A stretch of DNA of 64,000 bases, taken from NCBI RefSeq assembly GCF_988243305.1, contig NZ_OZ547136.1, one strand, 5' to 3'. Made by a program: the position numbers and the translations under genes. Of this stretch, positions 1-52,197 are shown piece by piece (position 1 is the stretch's first letter; every line of letters begins with the position of its first letter). The notes beneath the pieces were generated by a model. It worked only from the letters and a program-made list of their open reading frames with translations. It searched no databases and had not been told where the DNA came from.

Positions 1-188
1 ATTACGGTAAGGACCTGTGGAGTACTTATCAGACCATCCAGGAGAATATGCTGAAAGGCGGGATTTCCGGTCGCAGTGCAAAAGGAAAACGTATCCACAC
101 CCGTGCCATTCACAGCATCGACACCGATATTAAGCTCAACCGCGCATTGTGGGTAATGGCAGAAACGCTGCTGGAGAGCCTGCGCTGA
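1..188 (+). CDS. C-terminal fragment of an island protein (possibly DUF932 family); 5' end lies outside the window
   Basis: Open frame from window edge to TGA at 186-188; stop overlaps the ATG of the next ORF; position upstream of antirestriction gene as in CP4-type islands. Family assignment is from memory, not verified. Confidence 0.45.
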   Translation, partial: YGKDLWSTYQTIQENMLKGGISGRSAKGKRIHTRAIHSIDTDIKLNRALWVMAETLLESLR

Positions 189-433
189 TGCAGCATGTCC
201 CTGAAGGCGTGATTCAGGCACCAGAATCACCCGACGCCCCGGAGGCGCTGCCGGGGTGTCGTTCCATTTCTGATGATGACCTGTGCGCCTGGTGTACCCG
301 TCTGCTTTACCGTCCCGGAGAAATCAGTCTGTGCAGACTGAGTACAGGCAATGGCATCTGGCCATCCGTCTGTGACCGGAACGGTTACGCGTACGGCTGT
401 CCGGAATTTCAGCCGAATATCATTCATCCCTGA
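188..433 (+). CDS. Small cysteine-rich hypothetical protein (81 aa), possibly DUF905/YkfF-like
   Basis: ATG at 188 overlaps upstream stop (TGATG), suggesting translational coupling; 7 Cys in 81 aa; sits between DUF932-like and antirestriction genes. Confidence 0.45.
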   Translation: MQHVPEGVIQAPESPDAPEALPGCRSISDDDLCAWCTRLLYRPGEISLCRLSTGNGIWPSVCDRNGYAYGCPEFQPNIIHP

Positions 434-526
434 TATTACCGGGTCTCACGGTCAGTGATGAACGTGATGTTGCCAGCTCCCGACCTTTACTCCCTCTCAT
501 TTATTCACATTACAAGGATTTCATAC

Positions 527-1000
527 ATGAAAACATTGTCTCAGAACACCACCTCTTCGGCCTGTGCACCGGAGACTGGCCTGCAACAACTGGTTGCCAC
601 CATAGTCCCTGATGAACAGCGCATCAGCTTCTGGCCGCAGCATTTTGGCCTCATTCCACAGTGGGTGACCCTGGAGCCCCGTGTCTTCGGCTGGATGGAC
701 CGTCTGTGCGAAAACTACTGCGGTGGTATCTGGAATCTGTACACCCTGAACAACGGCGGGGCATTTATGGCCCCTGAACCGGATGACTATGATGACGAAA
801 CATGGGTACTGTTCAATGCCATGAACGGTAACCGCGCTGAAATGAGCCCGGAAGCCGCCGGCATTGCCGCCTGTCTGATGACGTACAGTCATCACGCCTG
901 CCGTACGGAGTGTTATGCCATGACGGTTCATTATTACCGTCTGCGGGATTACGCCCTGCAGCATCCGGAATGCAGCGCCATTATGCGCATTATTGACTGA
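527..1000 (+). CDS. Antirestriction protein, KlcA/ArdB family (YfjX/YafX-like)
   Basis: Translation MKTLSQNTTSSACAPETGLQQLVATIVPDEQRISFWPQHFG... matches my recollection of the K-12 prophage antirestriction paralogs; AAGGA RBS 9 nt upstream of ATG 527. Confidence 0.85.
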   Translation: MKTLSQNTTSSACAPETGLQQLVATIVPDEQRISFWPQHFGLIPQWVTLEPRVFGWMDRLCENYCGGIWNLYTLNNGGAFMAPEPDDYDDETWVLFNAMNGNRAEMSPEAAGIAACLMTYSHHACRTECYAMTVHYYRLRDYALQHPECSAIMRIID

Positions 1001-1015
1001 AAGGGGGCAGGAACA

Positions 1016-1492
1016 ATGCAACAGCTTTCCTTTCTGCCCGGAGAGATGACGCCCGGCGAGCGCAGTCTCATTCTGCGGGCCCTGAAAACCCTGGACCGCC
1101 ATCTTCATGAACCCGGCGTGGCCTTCACCTCCACCCGTGCGGCACGGGAATGGCTGATTCTGAACATGGCGGGACTGGAGCGTGAAGAGTTCCGGGTGCT
1201 GTATCTGAATAACCAGAATCAGCTGATTGCCGGTGAAACCCTCTTCACCGGCACCATCAACCGCACGGAAGTCCATCCCCGGGAAGTGATTAAACGCGCC
1301 CTGTATCACAATGCCGCAGCCGTGGTGCTGGCACACAATCACCCGTCCGGTGAAGTCACCCCCAGTAAGGCAGACCGCCTTATCACGGAACGTCTGGTAC
1401 AGGCACTGGGCCTGGTGGATATCCGGGTGCCGGACCATCTGATAGTCGGTGGCAGCCAGGTTTTCTCCTTTGCCGAACATGGTCTGCTTTAA
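1016..1492 (+). CDS. RadC-like JAB/MPN domain protein (YeeS/YkfG/YfjY family)
   Basis: 158-aa ORF with intact JAMM-type motif HNHPSGEVTPSKAD; conserved position after antirestriction gene. Confidence 0.9.
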   Translation: MQQLSFLPGEMTPGERSLILRALKTLDRHLHEPGVAFTSTRAAREWLILNMAGLEREEFRVLYLNNQNQLIAGETLFTGTINRTEVHPREVIKRALYHNAAAVVLAHNHPSGEVTPSKADRLITERLVQALGLVDIRVPDHLIVGGSQVFSFAEHGLL

Positions 1493-1554
1493 CCCGCCAC
1501 AACCACATCACACCTGTTTTCACTTTTATCTTCTGTCTTCAGAGGTATCCCATT

Positions 1555-1776
1555 ATGAAAATCATCACCCGTGGTGAAGCCATGCGTATTCACCAACAGC
1601 ATCCTGCATCCCGTCTTTTTCCGTTCTGTACCGGCAAATACCGCTGGCACGGCAGCACTGAAACGTATACCGGTCGTGAAGTGCAGGATATTCCCGGTGT
1701 GCTGGCCGTGTTTGCTGAACGCCGTAAGGACAGTTTTGGCCCGTATGTCCGGCTGATGAGCGTCACTCTGAACTGA
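1555..1776 (+). CDS. DUF987 protein (YeeT/YkfH/YpjJ-like)
   Basis: 73-aa translation MKIITRGEAMRIHQQHP...YVRLMSVTLN is near-identical to K-12 YeeT as I recall it. Confidence 0.85.
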   Translation: MKIITRGEAMRIHQQHPASRLFPFCTGKYRWHGSTETYTGREVQDIPGVLAVFAERRKDSFGPYVRLMSVTLN

Positions 1777-1794
1777 GTCAGTAAGGGCATTCTG

Positions 1795-2439
1795 ATGAGC
1801 AGAATTATCACCACCACCGTGTATACACTGCATGAGCTATCCTCCACCGCACAGGAAAAAGCCCGCGACTGGTACCGTCAGCATCATGCTGACAGCAACT
1901 GGTATGAAAACGTGTATGAGGACTTCAGGGAGGTCTGTGGCATTTTCGGAATTGACCTCCGCCAGCGCGTTTTCCGGCTCAGCAACGGCAGGTTTATGGA
2001 AGAGCCGTGCATCTGGTTCAGCGGATTCTGCAGTCAGGGGGACGGAGCCTGTTTTGAAGGGCGCTGGCACTGGCAGCCAGCGACACCCCGGAAAATCAGG
2101 GAATATGCCCCTCAGGACCGTGAGCTTCATCGTATCGCGGATGCCCTGCAGGCGGTACAGAAGCGTAACTTCTGGCAGTTACAGGCTGAAATCAGTCACC
2201 GGGGACGTTACTGCCATCCGTACAGCATGGATATCACCGTCACCCGGAACAGTCCGACTGGTCAGGCACTGACAGCCGATGCGGAAGCCGCTGTCAGCGA
2301 AGCCCTGCGCGACCTGGCCTTCTGGCTGTACCGCCAGCTGGAAAACGAGTACGACTGGCTGACCTCAGACGCCGCTGTAGATGAGGCCATTCACATCAAT
2401 GCATATACCTTCACCGAAGCCGGTCTCCACGCCGGCTGA
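1795..2439 (+). CDS. Hypothetical protein (214 aa), unknown function, inserted between DUF987 gene and cbeA
   Basis: Uninterrupted 645-nt ORF; ATG preceded by AAGGG; Trp/Cys-rich; no family recognised. The K-12 yeeT-cbeA type modules have no gene here. Confidence 0.55.
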   Translation: MSRIITTTVYTLHELSSTAQEKARDWYRQHHADSNWYENVYEDFREVCGIFGIDLRQRVFRLSNGRFMEEPCIWFSGFCSQGDGACFEGRWHWQPATPRKIREYAPQDRELHRIADALQAVQKRNFWQLQAEISHRGRYCHPYSMDITVTRNSPTGQALTADAEAAVSEALRDLAFWLYRQLENEYDWLTSDAAVDEAIHINAYTFTEAGLHAG

Positions 2440-2488
2440 CCTGTCATCGTTAAACTATCATTCACCAATTTTTTGTGAGGATTTGATC

Positions 2489-2866
2489 GTGTCAGACACA
2501 CTCCCCGGGACAACACTTCCCGACGACAATCACGACCGCCCCTGGTGGGGGCTGCCCTGCACCGTGACGCCCTGTTTCGGGGCACGTCTGGTGCAGGAGG
2601 GTAACCGGTTGCATTACCTTGCAGACCGCACCGGTATCAGAGGCCGGTTCAGCAATGCGGATGCATACCATCTGGACCAGGCTTTTCCACTGCTGATGAA
2701 ACAACTGGAACTCATGCTCACCAGCGGTGAACTGAATCCCCGCCATCAGCATACCGTCACGCTGTATGCGAAAGGGCTGACCTGCGAAGCTGATACCCTT
2801 GGCAGTTGTGGTTACGTTTATCTGGCTGTTTATCCGACACCGGCAGCACCCGCAATCACCGTATAA
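2489..2866 (+). CDS. cbeA: Type IV TA antitoxin CbeA (YeeU) homolog
   Basis: GTG start with GTGAGGA RBS; translation VSDTLPGTTLPDDNHDRPWWGLPCTVTPCFGARLVQEGNRLHYLADR... matches K-12 CbeA. Confidence 0.9.
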   Translation: MSDTLPGTTLPDDNHDRPWWGLPCTVTPCFGARLVQEGNRLHYLADRTGIRGRFSNADAYHLDQAFPLLMKQLELMLTSGELNPRHQHTVTLYAKGLTCEADTLGSCGYVYLAVYPTPAAPAITV

Positions 2867-2912
2867 CCCCGGATATCTCCCCTTTATCACCACCTGTTAC
2901 AGAGAACTTAAG

Positions 2913-3287
2913 ATGAATACATTACCCGACACTCACGTACGGGAGGCATCGGGCTGCCCGTCTCCCGTCACCATCTGGCAGACACTGCTCACCCGACTGC
3001 TGGACCAGCACTACGGCCTCACGCTGAATGACACACCGTTCGCTGATGAACGTGTGATTGAGCAGCATATTGAGGCAGGTATTTCACTGTGTGATGCGGT
3101 GAACTTTCTCGTGGAAAAATACGCGCTGGTGCGTACCGACCAGCCGGGATTCAGCGCCTGTACCCGCTCTCAGTTAATAAACAGCATCGATATCCTCCGG
3201 GCTCGCAGGGCGACCGGCCTGATGACCCGCGACAATTACAGAACGGTAAATAACATAACCCTGGGTAAGCATCCGGAGGCGAAATGA
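2913..3287 (+). CDS. cbtA: Type IV TA toxin CbtA (YeeV) homolog, cytoskeleton-targeting
   Basis: 124-aa translation; C-terminal ~100 aa (LLDQHYGLTLNDTPFADERVIEQHIEAGISLCDAVNFLVEKYALVR...) matches K-12 CbtA; N-terminus divergent. Confidence 0.9.
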   Translation: MNTLPDTHVREASGCPSPVTIWQTLLTRLLDQHYGLTLNDTPFADERVIEQHIEAGISLCDAVNFLVEKYALVRTDQPGFSACTRSQLINSIDILRARRATGLMTRDNYRTVNNITLGKHPEAK

Positions 3288-3775
3288 TGAAACTGGCCCT
3301 GACGCTGGAAGCCGACAGCGTTAACGTACAGGCACTGAACATGGGGCGCATTGTCGTTGACGTCGATGGTATTGAGCTTGCTGAACTGATTAACGTGGTC
3401 TGCGATAACGGTCACTCCCTTCGTGTTGTTGATGAATCTGACCGAGCCTCAACAGACTGCACGCCACCATTTGCTGCCCTGACCGGCATACGCTGCAGTA
3501 CCGCGCATATCACGGCAAAAGACAACGCCTGGCTGTACTCGCTGTCGCATCAGACGAATGACACCGGCGAATCAGAATGGATTCATTTTACAGGCAGCGG
3601 ATATCTGTTACGTACCGATGCGTGGTCATACCCGGTTCTGCGGCTTAAACGCCTGGGCCTGTCAAAAACGTTCCGCCGCCTGGTTGTCACACTCATCCGA
3701 CGTTATGGCGTCAGTCTCATTCATCTGGATGCCAGCGCTGAATGCCTGCCGGGTTTACCCACTTTCGACTGGTAA
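3284..3775 (+). CDS. DUF5983 protein (YeeW-like), overlaps cbtA stop
   Basis: ATG at 3284 overlaps cbtA stop (ATGATGA); 163-aa ORF in the conserved position after cbtA. Confidence 0.75.
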   Translation: MMKLALTLEADSVNVQALNMGRIVVDVDGIELAELINVVCDNGHSLRVVDESDRASTDCTPPFAALTGIRCSTAHITAKDNAWLYSLSHQTNDTGESEWIHFTGSGYLLRTDAWSYPVLRLKRLGLSKTFRRLVVTLIRRYGVSLIHLDASAECLPGLPTFDW

Positions 3776-3777
3776 CC

Positions 3778-3984
3778 ATGAACAACATGAAATCATTAAC
3801 CACGGAAACCGCACTGGATATTCTGATTGCGTGGCTGCAGGACAATATCGACTGCGAATCGGGAATTATCTTTGACAACGATGAGGATAAAACAGATTCG
3901 GCAGCACTGTTGCCCTGTATCGAACAGGCCAGGGAGGGTATCCGTACCCTGTGCCAACTGCAGCTTCTGCACCAGAACCGATGA
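3778..3984 (+). CDS. Small acidic hypothetical protein (68 aa), possibly DUF957-like
   Basis: ATG 2 nt after the previous stop; acidic DNDEDK stretch; family assignment from memory only. Confidence 0.5.
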   Translation: MNNMKSLTTETALDILIAWLQDNIDCESGIIFDNDEDKTDSAALLPCIEQAREGIRTLCQLQLLHQNR

Positions 3985-4073
3985 GTCTTACTCATTCACT
4001 CACCAGACTTCATTCCAATGACGTCAGCCTGAACAGGGCTGGCGTTTTCGTTTATAAACCAAAAGGAAAAACG

Positions 4074-4919
4074 ATGATGTCAGATATCACAATCTCCCGC
4101 CTGGAAGTGGTCAACGGACATACGGACATTATCTGCTCCACCTCAGTCAGCCACATTCTGGCTGTGCGAAAGACTACACTGCTGCAAATCGACACACTTA
4201 TCCGGCAACTGACTGAAATATCAGCAATGACAGAAAGTATTGGCGGTAAAACCGCACTGGACTGGGCCATGAAACAGGATTTTCGCTGCGGCTGCTGGCT
4301 CATGGATAAACCTGATACAGCAATGAAAGCTATCACCCGCAATCTCGATCGCGAAATCTGGCGTGACCTGATGCAATGCTCCGGGATGCTTTCCTTAATG
4401 GATGCACAGGCCCGTGATACATGGTACCGATCACTGGAGTACGATAATTTTCCGGAAATCAGTGAAGAGAATATTCTGAGTACGTTTGAGCAGCTACACC
4501 AGAATAAGGATGAAGTGTTTGAGCGAGGAGTGATCAACCTCTTCAGAGGGTTGAGCTGGAATTACAAAACCAATTGCCCCTGTAAATTTGGCAATAAAAT
4601 TATCGTCAACAATCTGGTGAGGTGGGACCGGTGGGGATTGCATCTTATCACCGGGCAACAGGCAGATAGACTTGCCGACCTGGAAAGAATGCTGCATCTG
4701 TTCAGCGGCAAACCGATCCCCGACAACAGGGAAAACATAACTATTCATCTGGACGAACATATCCGGTCTCTTCAGGGAAAAGAATGCTATGAAGATGAGA
4801 TGTTCATTATTAAATACTTTAAGAAGGGCTCTGCGCACATCACGTTCAGGAAGCCAGAACTGGTTGACAGACTGAATGATATTATCGCAAAACACTATCC
4901 TGATATGCTGGCAGTATAG
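4074..4919 (+). CDS. Hypothetical protein (281 aa), island cargo next to serX; possibly DUF4942-like
   Basis: AAGGAAAA RBS before ATG 4074; long ORF with lower GC than core; no catalytic motif recognised. Confidence 0.6.
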   Translation: MMSDITISRLEVVNGHTDIICSTSVSHILAVRKTTLLQIDTLIRQLTEISAMTESIGGKTALDWAMKQDFRCGCWLMDKPDTAMKAITRNLDREIWRDLMQCSGMLSLMDAQARDTWYRSLEYDNFPEISEENILSTFEQLHQNKDEVFERGVINLFRGLSWNYKTNCPCKFGNKIIVNNLVRWDRWGLHLITGQQADRLADLERMLHLFSGKPIPDNRENITIHLDEHIRSLQGKECYEDEMFIIKYFKKGSAHITFRKPELVDRLNDIIAKHYPDMLAV

Positions 4920-5026
4920 CTTTGCCAGTATGCTCAAAGATCGGAAATTGTCCGATAAGATATGATCGTGGGGCATATAAACCGGTTTCAGATGGCATAC
5001 CCGGTGGCATACTGTCTGGAAGGATA

Positions 5027-5060
5027 AATAAAAAAGCGCATGTTAAACAATAACATGCGC
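5027..5060 (-). terminator. Rho-independent terminator of serX
   Basis: Perfect 10-bp inverted repeat GCGCATGTTA/TAACATGCGC with 5-nt loop, followed on the minus strand by a T-tract, just downstream of the tRNA 3' end. Confidence 0.7.
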
Positions 5061-5068
5061 TTGTAATC

Positions 5069-5156
5069 TGGCGGTGAGGGGGGGATTCGAACCCCCGATA
5101 CGTTGCCGTATACACACTTTCCAGGCGTGCTCCTTCAGCCACTCGGACACCTCACC
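5069..5156 (-). tRNA. serX: tRNA-Ser (GGA), serX
   Basis: Reverse complement reads GGTGAGGTGTCCGAGTGGCTGAAGGAGCACGCCTGGAAAGTGTGTATACGGCAACGTATCGGGGGTTCGAATCCCCCCCTCACCGCCA: 88 nt, long variable arm, CCA end. Confidence 0.95.
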
Positions 5157-9656: not shown

Positions 9657-10046
9657 TTAGAATTCATCATGCGCCAAATCGCCCGTACTTAATAACGCCT
9701 GATTTATCTGGCGACGATTTAGTGCTTCTTCAGTTTGAATCAGTGCAAAGACGACAGTTTTTTCGAAGTCTCTTTTCAACGGGAATAAAAAAGTCTGGAA
9801 AATAACGTCCTGATTGACCGTTATAGTGATCCAGCTTCCCCATCGTGCACTGGGCCTTTCATTAATCGTTAAGTTACCCGTATAGTCACTTTCCCATTTA
9901 TCACTAAAGGCTCGGTAAAAATCATGGCCAATAGATGAAACAGTATGGTCAGTTAACAATCCCGGGACTTCTACCTCAACGGCGTGAAGATTCCCTGCGG
10001 CGAACAGAAATTCTGCCGCCACAATCCAGCGTAAATAACGTTTCAT
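9657..10046 (-). CDS. csgE: Curli secretion specificity factor CsgE
   Basis: 129-aa ORF. Confidence 0.95.
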
Positions 10047-10050
10047 GGCT

Positions 10051-10701
<651 letters not shown>

Positions 10702-11455
10702 GATGAAACCCCGCTTTTTTTATTGATCGCACACCTGACAGCTGCCTCTAAAATAGAAGCACCAGAAGTACTGACAGATGTTGCACTGCTGTGTGTAGTA
10801 ATAAATCAGCCCTAAATGGGTAAAATATAAAACTAATGGATTACATGTGATTTCAATCTAGCCATTACAAATCTTAAATCAAGTGTTAAACATGTAACTA
10901 AATGTAACTCGTTATATTAAAATGTTAATCTTAAGGTTTTGTTAAGTTTAGAAATGATAGAAAAGTTGTACATTTGGTTTTTATTGCACAATTTTAAAAA
11001 ATCATACAAATGGTGCTAACTTACTAATAATGCATATAAAAAATATTTCGGTGTAGTCCTTTCGTCATGTAAAACGTTGTTGTTTTTTCTTCACACCTCC
11101 GTGGACAATTTTTTACTGCAAAAAGACGAGGTTTGTCACGGCTTGTGCGCAAGACATATCGCAGCAATCAGCGACGGGCAAGAAGAATGGCTGTCTGGTG
11201 ATTTTTGATTGCGGAAAACGGAGATTTAAAAGAAAACAAAATATTTTTTTGCGTAGATAACAGCGTATTTACGTGGGTTTTAATACTTTGGTATGAACAA
11301 AAAAAGAAAAATACAACGCGCGGGTGAGTTATTAAAAATATTTCCGCAGACATACTTTCCATCGTAACGCAGCGTTAACAAAATACAGGTTGCGTTAACA
11401 ACCAAGTTGAAATGATTTAATTTCTTAAATGTACGACCAGGTCCAGGGTGACAAC
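10702..11455. promoter_or_regulatory. csgD-csgB divergent intergenic control region
   Basis: ~750-bp AT-rich non-coding stretch between divergent csgD and csgB starts; known multi-factor regulatory region. Confidence 0.8.
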
Positions 11456-11911
11456 ATGAAAAACAAATTGTTATTTATGATGTTAACAATACTGGGTGCG
11501 CCTGGGATTGCAGCCGCAGCAGGTTATGATTTAGCTAATTCAGAATATAACTTCGCGGTAAATGAATTGAGTAAGTCTTCATTTAATCAGGCAGCCATAA
11601 TTGGTCAAGCTGGGACTAATAATAGTGCTCAGTTACGGCAGGGAGGCTCAAAACTTTTGGCGGTTGTTGCGCAAGAAGGTAGTAGCAATCGGGCAAAGAT
11701 TGACCAGACAGGAGATTATAACCTTGCATATATTGATCAGGCGGGCAGTGCCAACGATGCCAGTATTTCGCAAGGTGCTTATGGTAATACTGCGATGATT
11801 ATCCAGAAAGGTTCTGGTAATAAAGCAAATATTACACAGTATGGTACTCAAAAAACGGCAATTGTAGTGCAGAGACAGTCGCAAATGGCAATTCGCGTGA
11901 CACAACGTTAA
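11456..11911 (+). CDS. csgB: Minor curlin (nucleator) CsgB
   Basis: 151 aa; signal peptide then imperfect Q/N/G-rich repeats. Confidence 0.95.
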   Translation: MKNKLLFMMLTILGAPGIAAAAGYDLANSEYNFAVNELSKSSFNQAAIIGQAGTNNSAQLRQGGSKLLAVVAQEGSSNRAKIDQTGDYNLAYIDQAGSANDASISQGAYGNTAMIIQKGSGNKANITQYGTQKTAIVVQRQSQMAIRVTQR

Positions 11912-11951
11912 TTACTATTCGACTTTTAAATCAATCCGATGGGGGTTTTAC

Positions 11952-12407
11952 ATGAAACTTTTAAAAGTAGCAGCAATTGCAGCAATCGTATTCTCCGGTA
12001 GCGCTCTGGCAGGTGTTGTTCCTCAGTACGGCGGCGGCGGTAACCACGGTGGTGGCGGTAATAATAGCGGCCCAAATTCAGAGCTGAACATTTACCAGTA
12101 CGGTGGCGGTAACTCTGCTCTTGCTCTGCAAGCTGACGCCCGTAACTCTGATCTGACCATTACCCAGCACGGCGGCGGTAACGGCGCAGATGTTGGCCAA
12201 GGTTCTGATGACAGCTCAATCGATCTGACTCAGCGTGGCTTCGGTAACAGCGCTACTCTTGATCAGTGGAATGGTAAAGATTCTACTATGACTGTTAAAC
12301 AGTTCGGTGGCGGTAACGGTGCTGCTGTTGACCAGACTGCATCTAACTCCAGCGTTAACGTCACTCAGGTTGGCTTTGGTAACAACGCGACCGCTCATCA
12401 GTACTAA
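11952..12407 (+). CDS. csgA: Major curlin subunit CsgA
   Basis: 151 aa; five S-x5-Q-x-G-x-G-N-x-A repeats. Confidence 0.95.
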   Translation: MKLLKVAAIAAIVFSGSALAGVVPQYGGGGNHGGGGNNSGPNSELNIYQYGGGNSALALQADARNSDLTITQHGGGNGADVGQGSDDSSIDLTQRGFGNSATLDQWNGKDSTMTVKQFGGGNGAAVDQTASNSSVNVTQVGFGNNATAHQY

Positions 12408-20919: not shown

Positions 20920-21015
20920 TTGCCTGATGCGCTACGCTTATCAGGCCTACATCGCTCCTGCAATGTGTTGATTTTGCAAGATTTTGTAGGTCGGATAAGG
21001 CGTTCACGCCACATC
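20920..21015. repeat. REP/BIME palindromic elements
   Basis: GCCTGATGCGCTACGCTTATCAGGCCTAC and GTAGGTCGGATAAGGCGTTCACGCC REP-like units downstream of opgH. Confidence 0.8.
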
Positions 21016-30115: not shown

Positions 30116-30220
30116 TAATCTCTATGCTCCGGCTGAAGGGATGTTTTTGCCGGACACAAAGGATAAGCGGAAACGTTTTCCTTTGCACGAAAAATAAAGG
30201 GCGCGAATGCGCCCTCGTGA

Positions 30221-51836: not shown

Positions 51837-52197
51837 CGTAACTTACTCATTATTCTTACATTGACGACTAAGCTGCGGGCAAAGTAACGCCTTTCCGGGT
51901 GTGAACCGATGGCCTCGTGTCTAGTCGCGTCGCCAACCTCACGGTTATCGTCAGCTCAAAGAGGCGCAGAGTGTCGGTTGCCCGTTTTTCATGCGGAAAA
52001 ACAGCGCAATTATCAAAGAAACAGACTGGGTATTACTCTCCAGAAATATTTCCATCTACCGGTAAGGACTGCAACCCGCAGCCCGCTAACTGCCTGAAAG
52101 ATCAATACGTCTTACGCCATTGCTGCGTGGATGATCGGTCGGGCAAAATGGGTTATTCCGTAAAATTTCTTGTTTTAACAAGGATGGACACGGAAAC
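51837..52197 (-). promoter_or_regulatory. rne 5' untranslated leader (autoregulatory in K-12)
   Basis: Long non-coding region upstream of rne start, divergent from rluC; extent taken from K-12 knowledge and is approximate. Confidence 0.6.

Follow-up and report, generated by a model that had tools for sequence, protein, structure and literature searches.

The curli locus and its intergenic spacer

We analyzed a 64-kb stretch of DNA (hereafter the window) in which csgG, csgF, csgE and csgD lie on one side, and csgB, csgA and csgC on the other side, of an intergenic spacer; all are intact and their order is that of E. coli K-12. Taken as the gap between the flanking open reading frames (ORFs), the csgD–csgB spacer occupies positions 10702–11455 and measures 754 bp, which is likewise its length in K-12 MG1655 and the length given in the literature (PMC12713406). 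The spacer and its immediate neighbors are:

10051..10701, minus strand: csgD coding sequence, intact, 216 aa (from the ORF list; S19P and S110A relative to K-12)
10702..11455, no strand assigned: csgD–csgB intergenic control region, complete (from the flanking ORFs, the K-12 alignment and GC rank)
11456..11911, plus strand: csgB coding sequence, 151 aa, ATG at 11456 (from the ORF list; protein identical to that of K-12)

The initial annotation had described the interval between csgD and csgB as a non-coding, AT-rich divergent region of ~750 bp, and the description holds. The only entries of the ORF list that overlap the spacer are short (40–64 aa) and attributable to chance. GC content is 34.5% (0.345), as against 50.9% (0.509) across the 64-kb window, and falls to 26.6% (0.266) in the segment 10849–11100. 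When 754-bp blocks were slid along the 64 kb the lowest GC content was found at 10741–11494; 0.65% of the blocks are as AT-rich as the spacer and every one of them overlaps it. From this spacer csgDEFG and csgBAC would be transcribed in opposite directions: it is predicted to carry the σS/σ70-dependent csgD P1 promoter together with a 147-nt leader that would act as a hub for small RNAs.

Elsewhere in the window, positions 1–5156 hold genes of the kind found in CP4-like integrative islands (DUF932, antirestriction, a JAB/RadC-like protein, a CbeA/CbtA toxin–antitoxin pair and DUF4942), which adjoin a tRNA-Ser gene (5072–5156, minus strand). We read the content of the island from the annotated genome of the collinear strain 190693, together with an Rfam tRNA match; the stretch of K-12 used for comparison starts downstream of it. 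Further Rfam matches at gathering level are an rne 5′-UTR element (51861–52197, minus strand), the SraB sRNA (54058–54226, plus strand), a PyrC leader (30116–30165, minus strand) and ES036 (20943–20985, minus strand). The tRNA-Ser gene and SraB are ~49 kb apart, a spacing that we take to be similar to that in K-12.

Promoter core and leader of csgD

Details of the csgD promoter and leader are given below, with conservation assessed in 34 outgroup species:

10855..10860, minus strand: csgD −10 hexamer TAGATT, wild type (from the sequence; invariant in 34 of 34 outgroup species)
10848, minus strand: csgD P1 transcription start, +1 A (from the 147-nt UTR and from where the ES056 model begins; 33 of 34 outgroup species have A)
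10702..10848, minus strand: csgD 5′ UTR, 147 nt (identical to K-12 except at +2; contains the published sRNA and Hfq sites)
10757..10848, minus strand: Rfam ES056 (RF02752), full-length match over model positions 1–92, 116.6 bits against a gathering score of 43

We place +1 at position 10848 because two lines of evidence put the start there: the length of the csgD UTR, which is 147 nt by primer extension (PMC6061853), and the match to ES056, a short RNA family equivalent to the initial 92 nt of the csgD leader. The small-RNA and Hfq sites mapped in the leader are all identical to K-12; they comprise those of RprA, at −119..−84 and −14..+7 (PMC3465796), Hfq site I (−128..−112) and the OmrA/B stem-loop.

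Curli synteny, 98.7% identity of the spacer to K-12 and an ES056 match that begins at the known +1 together identify the spacer as the divergent control region between csgD and csgB, as first annotated. On these grounds we consider it very probable (roughly 0.9) that the region is the canonical, already known control region of E. coli, present as an ordinary wild-type haplotype whose core elements are those of K-12.

The initial annotation had also stated that strain-level changes in this region alter curli and biofilm expression, and the literature bears this out: one A-to-T substitution within the −10 hexamer of csgD (TAGATT to TAGAAT) makes O157:H7 ATCC 43895 curli-constitutive, a case which demonstrates that such changes in the csgD promoter can give large phenotypes (PMC7232329). 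In contrast, the −10 hexamer of the window is wild type. The O157 curli-up change, which on the plus strand reads AATCT to ATTCT, is absent from the window, where positions 10855–10859 read AATCT. Among the mutations known to change phenotype, neither the −10 A-to-T change, nor an indel in the OmpR box, nor an IS insertion was found in the window spacer.

Naturally altered spacers were encountered in other strains. E. coli Z1002 lacks 10 bp (ATGTAACTAA) corresponding to window positions 10892–10901, so that the direct repeat of its OmpR-box area is missing one copy; judged from the sequence, activation by OmpR would be expected to suffer some effect of this natural deletion. In strain P30_L1_05.20 (NZ_CP085060.1) an IS1 lies inside the csgD–csgB spacer, so that the match is split in two and spans 1,530 bp.

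Comparison with K-12 and with other E. coli genomes

Global alignment of the spacer with that of K-12 MG1655 (NC_000913.3 1103197–1103950), which has the same length, flanking genes and orientation, revealed ten substitutions and no indels; the region is thus not identical to K-12 throughout. The substitutions, numbered from csgD +1, are:

10847: +2
10929: −81
10941: −93
11016: −168
11079: −231
11091: −243
11190: −342
11201: −353
11210: −362
11299: −451

The two sequences do not differ in the −10 hexamer, at +1, in the OmpR and MlrA areas, in the sRNA sites of the leader or in the csgB-proximal 156 bp. To place the ten differences in context we used a panel of 16 sequences consisting of the window and 15 strains sampled across the similarity ranking; these include K-12, the top-ranked GN02461, TUM14771 and PCN033, and also O157:H7 86-24, O111:H8, KO11FL, an O25:H4 strain, UTI89 and others. 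The substitution at +2 is private to the window. The remaining nine are shared polymorphisms, each found in 4 to 14 of the 16 panel sequences, and at three of them (11016, 11201 and 11299) the minority allele is the one in K-12. The window spacer is a common, non-K-12, wild-type haplotype. The csgD leader is particularly uniform, with just five variable columns among the 16 strains.

Of 5,426 complete E. coli genomes, 5,371 have a match to the spacer; identity ranges from 97.6 to 99.9%, with K-12 in the middle of the range. Six of the matches lie on records labelled as plasmids. Fifty-five of the 5,426 genomes have no match to the spacer and have presumably lost the curli locus.

The best spacer matches among the 5,426 genomes are GN02461 (NZ_CP095533.1) and NZ_OZ547043.1, each of which shares 753 of 754 bases with the window (99.9%). 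In GN02461 the sole difference is at 10847 (csgD +2). Beyond the spacer this strain is less similar, differing from the window at ~0.37% of sites across the csg locus. None of the complete genomes is closely related to the strain studied here: the best match to a 25-kb segment reaches 99.5% (115 mismatches and two gaps), and divergence from the closest complete genomes amounts to 0.37–0.47% of sites. The 25-kb context is closest to strain 190693, the spacer haplotype of which differs from that of the window at 10847, 10929, 10941, 11079 and 11429.

Across the csg locus (9948–12209) the best match differs from segment to segment, a mosaic pattern that is consistent with recombination. The csgE–csgD block is 100% identical to several strains including ATCC 11775, and exact matches to the csgD block (10051..10701) were found in other E. 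coli genomes. The genes also differ in their distance from K-12: 30 of 456 nt in csgA (11952–12407), with three amino acid changes, as against 2 of 456 in csgB and 4 of 651 in csgD. A small indel relative to GN02461 is found directly past csgA, at about 12412. These sequence comparisons suggest that the csgA segment is either recombinant or fast-evolving.

Regulator sites and shared polymorphisms

Footprint coordinates were taken from the literature and carried onto the window through the K-12 alignment. On this basis the spacer would contain overlapping sites for OmpR, CpxR, IHF, H-NS, MlrA, RcsB, RcdA, MqsA and CsgD, binding being predicted from identity to K-12. The areas in which no difference from K-12 was found are:

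10883..10908, minus strand: OmpR-box area with the direct repeat GTTACAT... (about −35 to −60), identical to K-12
10961..10993, no strand assigned: MlrA palindrome area AAAAGTTGTACA-N-TGCACAATTTT (about −113 to −145), without variation among the 16 strains
11300..11455, plus strand: csgB-proximal 156 bp, identical to K-12, with five variable columns among the 16 strains

We take the OmpR site to lie at about −35 to −60 (after Prigent-Combaret 2001 and Jubelin 2005) and the MlrA site at about −113 to −145 (after Ogasawara 2010). The csgB-proximal 156 bp (11300–11455) should contain the csgBAC promoter; it includes, at 11321–11331, a motif (CGGGTGAGTTA) that resembles what we assume to be the CsgD box, following the consensus of Brombacher 2003.

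The sites and zones in which substitutions fall are:

10796..10879, no strand assigned: RcsB footprint (−31 to +53); the RcsB box (−7..+7) holds the private substitution (PMC12388358)
10821..11049, no strand assigned: zone covered by H-NS (+28 to −201), containing the substitution at 11016 (PMC4894380, PMC3535384)
10927..10938, no strand assigned: position of the MqsA palindrome, AACCTTAAGGTT in K-12 and AATCTTAAGGTT in the window (palindrome from PMC4894380)
10938..10950, no strand assigned: upstream CpxR box (−90 to −102), containing the substitution at 10941 (−93, A to G) (PMC4894380)
11040..11156, no strand assigned: initial binding zone of RcdA (−192 to −308), containing the substitutions at 11079 and 11091 (PMC3535384)

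The other shared substitutions, at 11190, 11201, 11210 and 11299, lie beyond these sites. The substitution at 10929 (−81) converts AACCT to AATCT and so breaks one half-site of the MqsA palindrome: the window does not have the intact form AACCT-N2/3-AGGTT. A five-base mutant of the other half-site of the same palindrome drastically reduces MqsA binding (PMC4894380), and the substitution at 10941 falls inside the CpxR box. It is conceivable, then, that the shared substitutions at 10929, 10941, 11079 and 11091 give curli regulation that is measurably unlike that of K-12, for example through loss of repression by MqsA. We consider this unlikely. At 10929 the panel carries T in ten sequences, C in four and A in two, and the AACCT of K-12 is retained in only 4 of 16; T is the majority allele and the K-12 palindrome is the exception. 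The G at 10941 is common to GN02461, TUM14771 and ETEC6333, and the alleles at 11079 and 11091 recur in 5 and in 7 of the 16, respectively. Moreover, in a knockout survey published in 2025, deletion of cpxR, mqsR, rcdA, rstA or basR left csgBA expression like that of the wild type (PMC12713406). The polymorphisms in the MqsA, CpxR and RcdA sites are therefore probably silent or of little consequence.

A private substitution at csgD +2

The sole unusual item in the spacer is the substitution at csgD +2, which is not among the mutations known to change phenotype:

10847, minus strand: private substitution at csgD +2; csgD-sense (non-template) C, where K-12 and all comparators have G

On the plus strand the window reads G at this position and all 15 panel comparators carry the other base. 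A 61-mer centered on the variant had no exact match among the 5,337 complete E. coli genomes with the locus (the best agreed at 60 of 61 positions), whereas the K-12 version of the same 61-mer is present exactly in 5,136 of them (96%). The variant 31-mer CTAATGGATTACATGTGATTTCAATCTAGCC was also absent from a metagenome collection; only 11 contigs in that collection carry the locus, all with the usual base at +2, and the result therefore has little weight.

The position is conserved well beyond E. coli. The 34 outgroup species represent more than ten genera (including Escherichia, Citrobacter, Enterobacter, Leclercia, Lelliottia, Trabulsiella, Phytobacter, Siccibacter and Buttiauxella), and across them the core formed by the −10 hexamer, discriminator, +1 and +2 (TAGATTGAAAtCAG; TAGATT-GAAAtC-AG) is almost invariant. 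At +2 itself 32 species have G, two have A (one of these from an indel shift) and none has C; +3 and +4 vary freely. A conserved A+1/G+2 beside freely varying +3/+4 is compatible with a constraint acting on initiation. We saw +2G lost naturally in just one other case, that of Escherichia sp. MOD1-EC7003, a member of a cryptic clade, in which a 1-nt deletion removes the base and leaves TCAATG instead of TCAGATG.

How much should be made of a private base depends on how many such bases the strain can be expected to have. By definition, any private base falls on a position that is otherwise invariant. The strain diverges from its closest complete genomes at 0.37–0.47% of sites, and exact matches in the collection exist for just one of the two 754-bp blocks that flank the spacer, the block spanning csgB–csgA having none; the private base is for these reasons unremarkable. 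In this strain one unmatched base in every 754 bp is ordinary, as chance predicts.

The same data bear on whether the difference at 10847 is real. Were it a sequencing or assembly error, or a mutation acquired during laboratory passage, the region would be a plain GN02461-type haplotype; an allele found in none of 5,337 complete genomes and in none of 11 metagenome contigs, at a position conserved across genera from which purifying selection is expected to remove changes, is what such an origin would produce. We nonetheless regard it as quite improbable, since the assembly does not look error-ridden (~0.4–0.5% divergence with only two gaps in 25 kb), the csgB–csgA flank similarly lacks an exact match, and position 10847 lies outside homopolymers and outside the methylation motifs GATC and CCWGG.

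Possible consequences of the +2 substitution

A G at +2 of the non-template strand inserts into a pocket of the RNA polymerase β-subunit, where it forms part of the core recognition element (CRE); the contact raises the half-life of the open complex 1.8- to 2.6-fold, and +2C and +2G have been compared directly at rrnB P1 (PMC4499132). The csgD promoter of nearly all Enterobacteriaceae has this non-template G. The window, with C at 10847, lacks it and in this respect resembles rrnB P1, which naturally has +2C and forms short-lived open complexes. By analogy the G-to-C change would remove the contact with the β pocket and give an open complex that is roughly two-fold less stable, possibly with a more scattered choice of start site: the substitution creates a second pyrimidine–purine step (CACA), which could allow a minor start at +3. 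It would also alter the central RcsB box (−7..+7), within the zone covered by H-NS. It is plausible that csgD P1 is thereby modestly weakened or blurred, with a net effect on curli that is modest or nil. Both the direction and the size of the effect are extrapolated from other promoters, studied with the σ70 holoenzyme. The comparison with O157:H7 43895 is instructive here: the change in the window lies at +2 and costs a favorable contact with RNA polymerase rather than improving a hexamer, and therefore a large gain in expression is not expected.

A stronger proposal is that the substitution is both real and functional, the lost CRE contact and the altered RcsB box shifting the level or timing of CsgD, or the choice of start, so as to give a strain-specific curli phenotype. 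By analogy with the promoters just described this is possible, and it is an idea that we would put forward only tentatively, as one that is on balance doubtful.

An effect at the level of RNA was also considered. The K-12 leader is predicted to pair, through its 5′ end (GAUG-U-AAUCC), with GGGUU-U-CAUC, located just before the AUG, and disruption of this helix might alter csgD translation or access by RNase E or RppH. ViennaRNA predicts the helix in K-12 at a probability of 0.3–1.0 for most 3′ truncations; the substitution largely abolishes it and changes the duplex energy from −10.3 to −6.5 kcal/mol. Once 200 nt of coding sequence are included, however, the helix disappears for both alleles, and in published structure probing the leader had an unstructured 5′ end, with a local hairpin around the translation initiation region (PMC6061853, PMC3465796). 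Only Escherichia and some Citrobacter show the complementarity (9 of 10 pairs), as against 3–6 of 10 in Enterobacter, Leclercia and others, yet +2G is conserved even in genera without it. The substitution also lies outside every mapped sRNA or Hfq site. An action through RNA thus appears very unlikely. As the main explanation, a helix between the 5′ end and the Shine–Dalgarno region was rejected: it depends on truncation, conflicts with probing and, unlike +2G, lacks conservation beyond Escherichia and Citrobacter.

Finally, the substitution turns ATCAGA, which lies 16 nt upstream of TATATT, into the more −35-like hexamer ATCACA, and might in this way create an internal promoter whose transcript would lack the first ~30 nt of the leader. 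The resulting match to consensus (9 of 12; 10851..10824, minus strand) is present in the window and absent from K-12. It is one of three such matches in the region, as compared with 3.5 ± 1.8 expected from shuffled sequence, and the same consensus scan misses the true csgD promoter; the −35-like hexamer, furthermore, overlaps the real +1 and would be occupied by RNA polymerase, RcsB and H-NS. We consider an internal promoter highly implausible. The generic σ70 scan itself was set aside: it shows no excess over shuffled sequence and fails to recover the true csgD promoter, and the match created by the substitution is at the level of chance.

Implications for curli control

The haplotype of the window is common and its core elements are identical to those of K-12, and for these reasons the spacer should work essentially as it does in other wild E. 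coli: CsgD would be expected to be induced in stationary phase at low temperature and low osmolarity, and curli production to follow. This is a region that decides curli production and biofilm formation in E. coli, and one in which, as O157:H7 shows, single bases can switch phenotype. In the present case the spacer is a normal wild-type haplotype, from which nothing new is learned about the curli system as such. Its value lies in a natural variant at a +2 position that is conserved across genera, which bears on the role of the CRE contact at a weak, heavily regulated σS promoter. If loss of +2G does prove functional, this would explain why the base is conserved at the csgD promoter across the Enterobacteriaceae.
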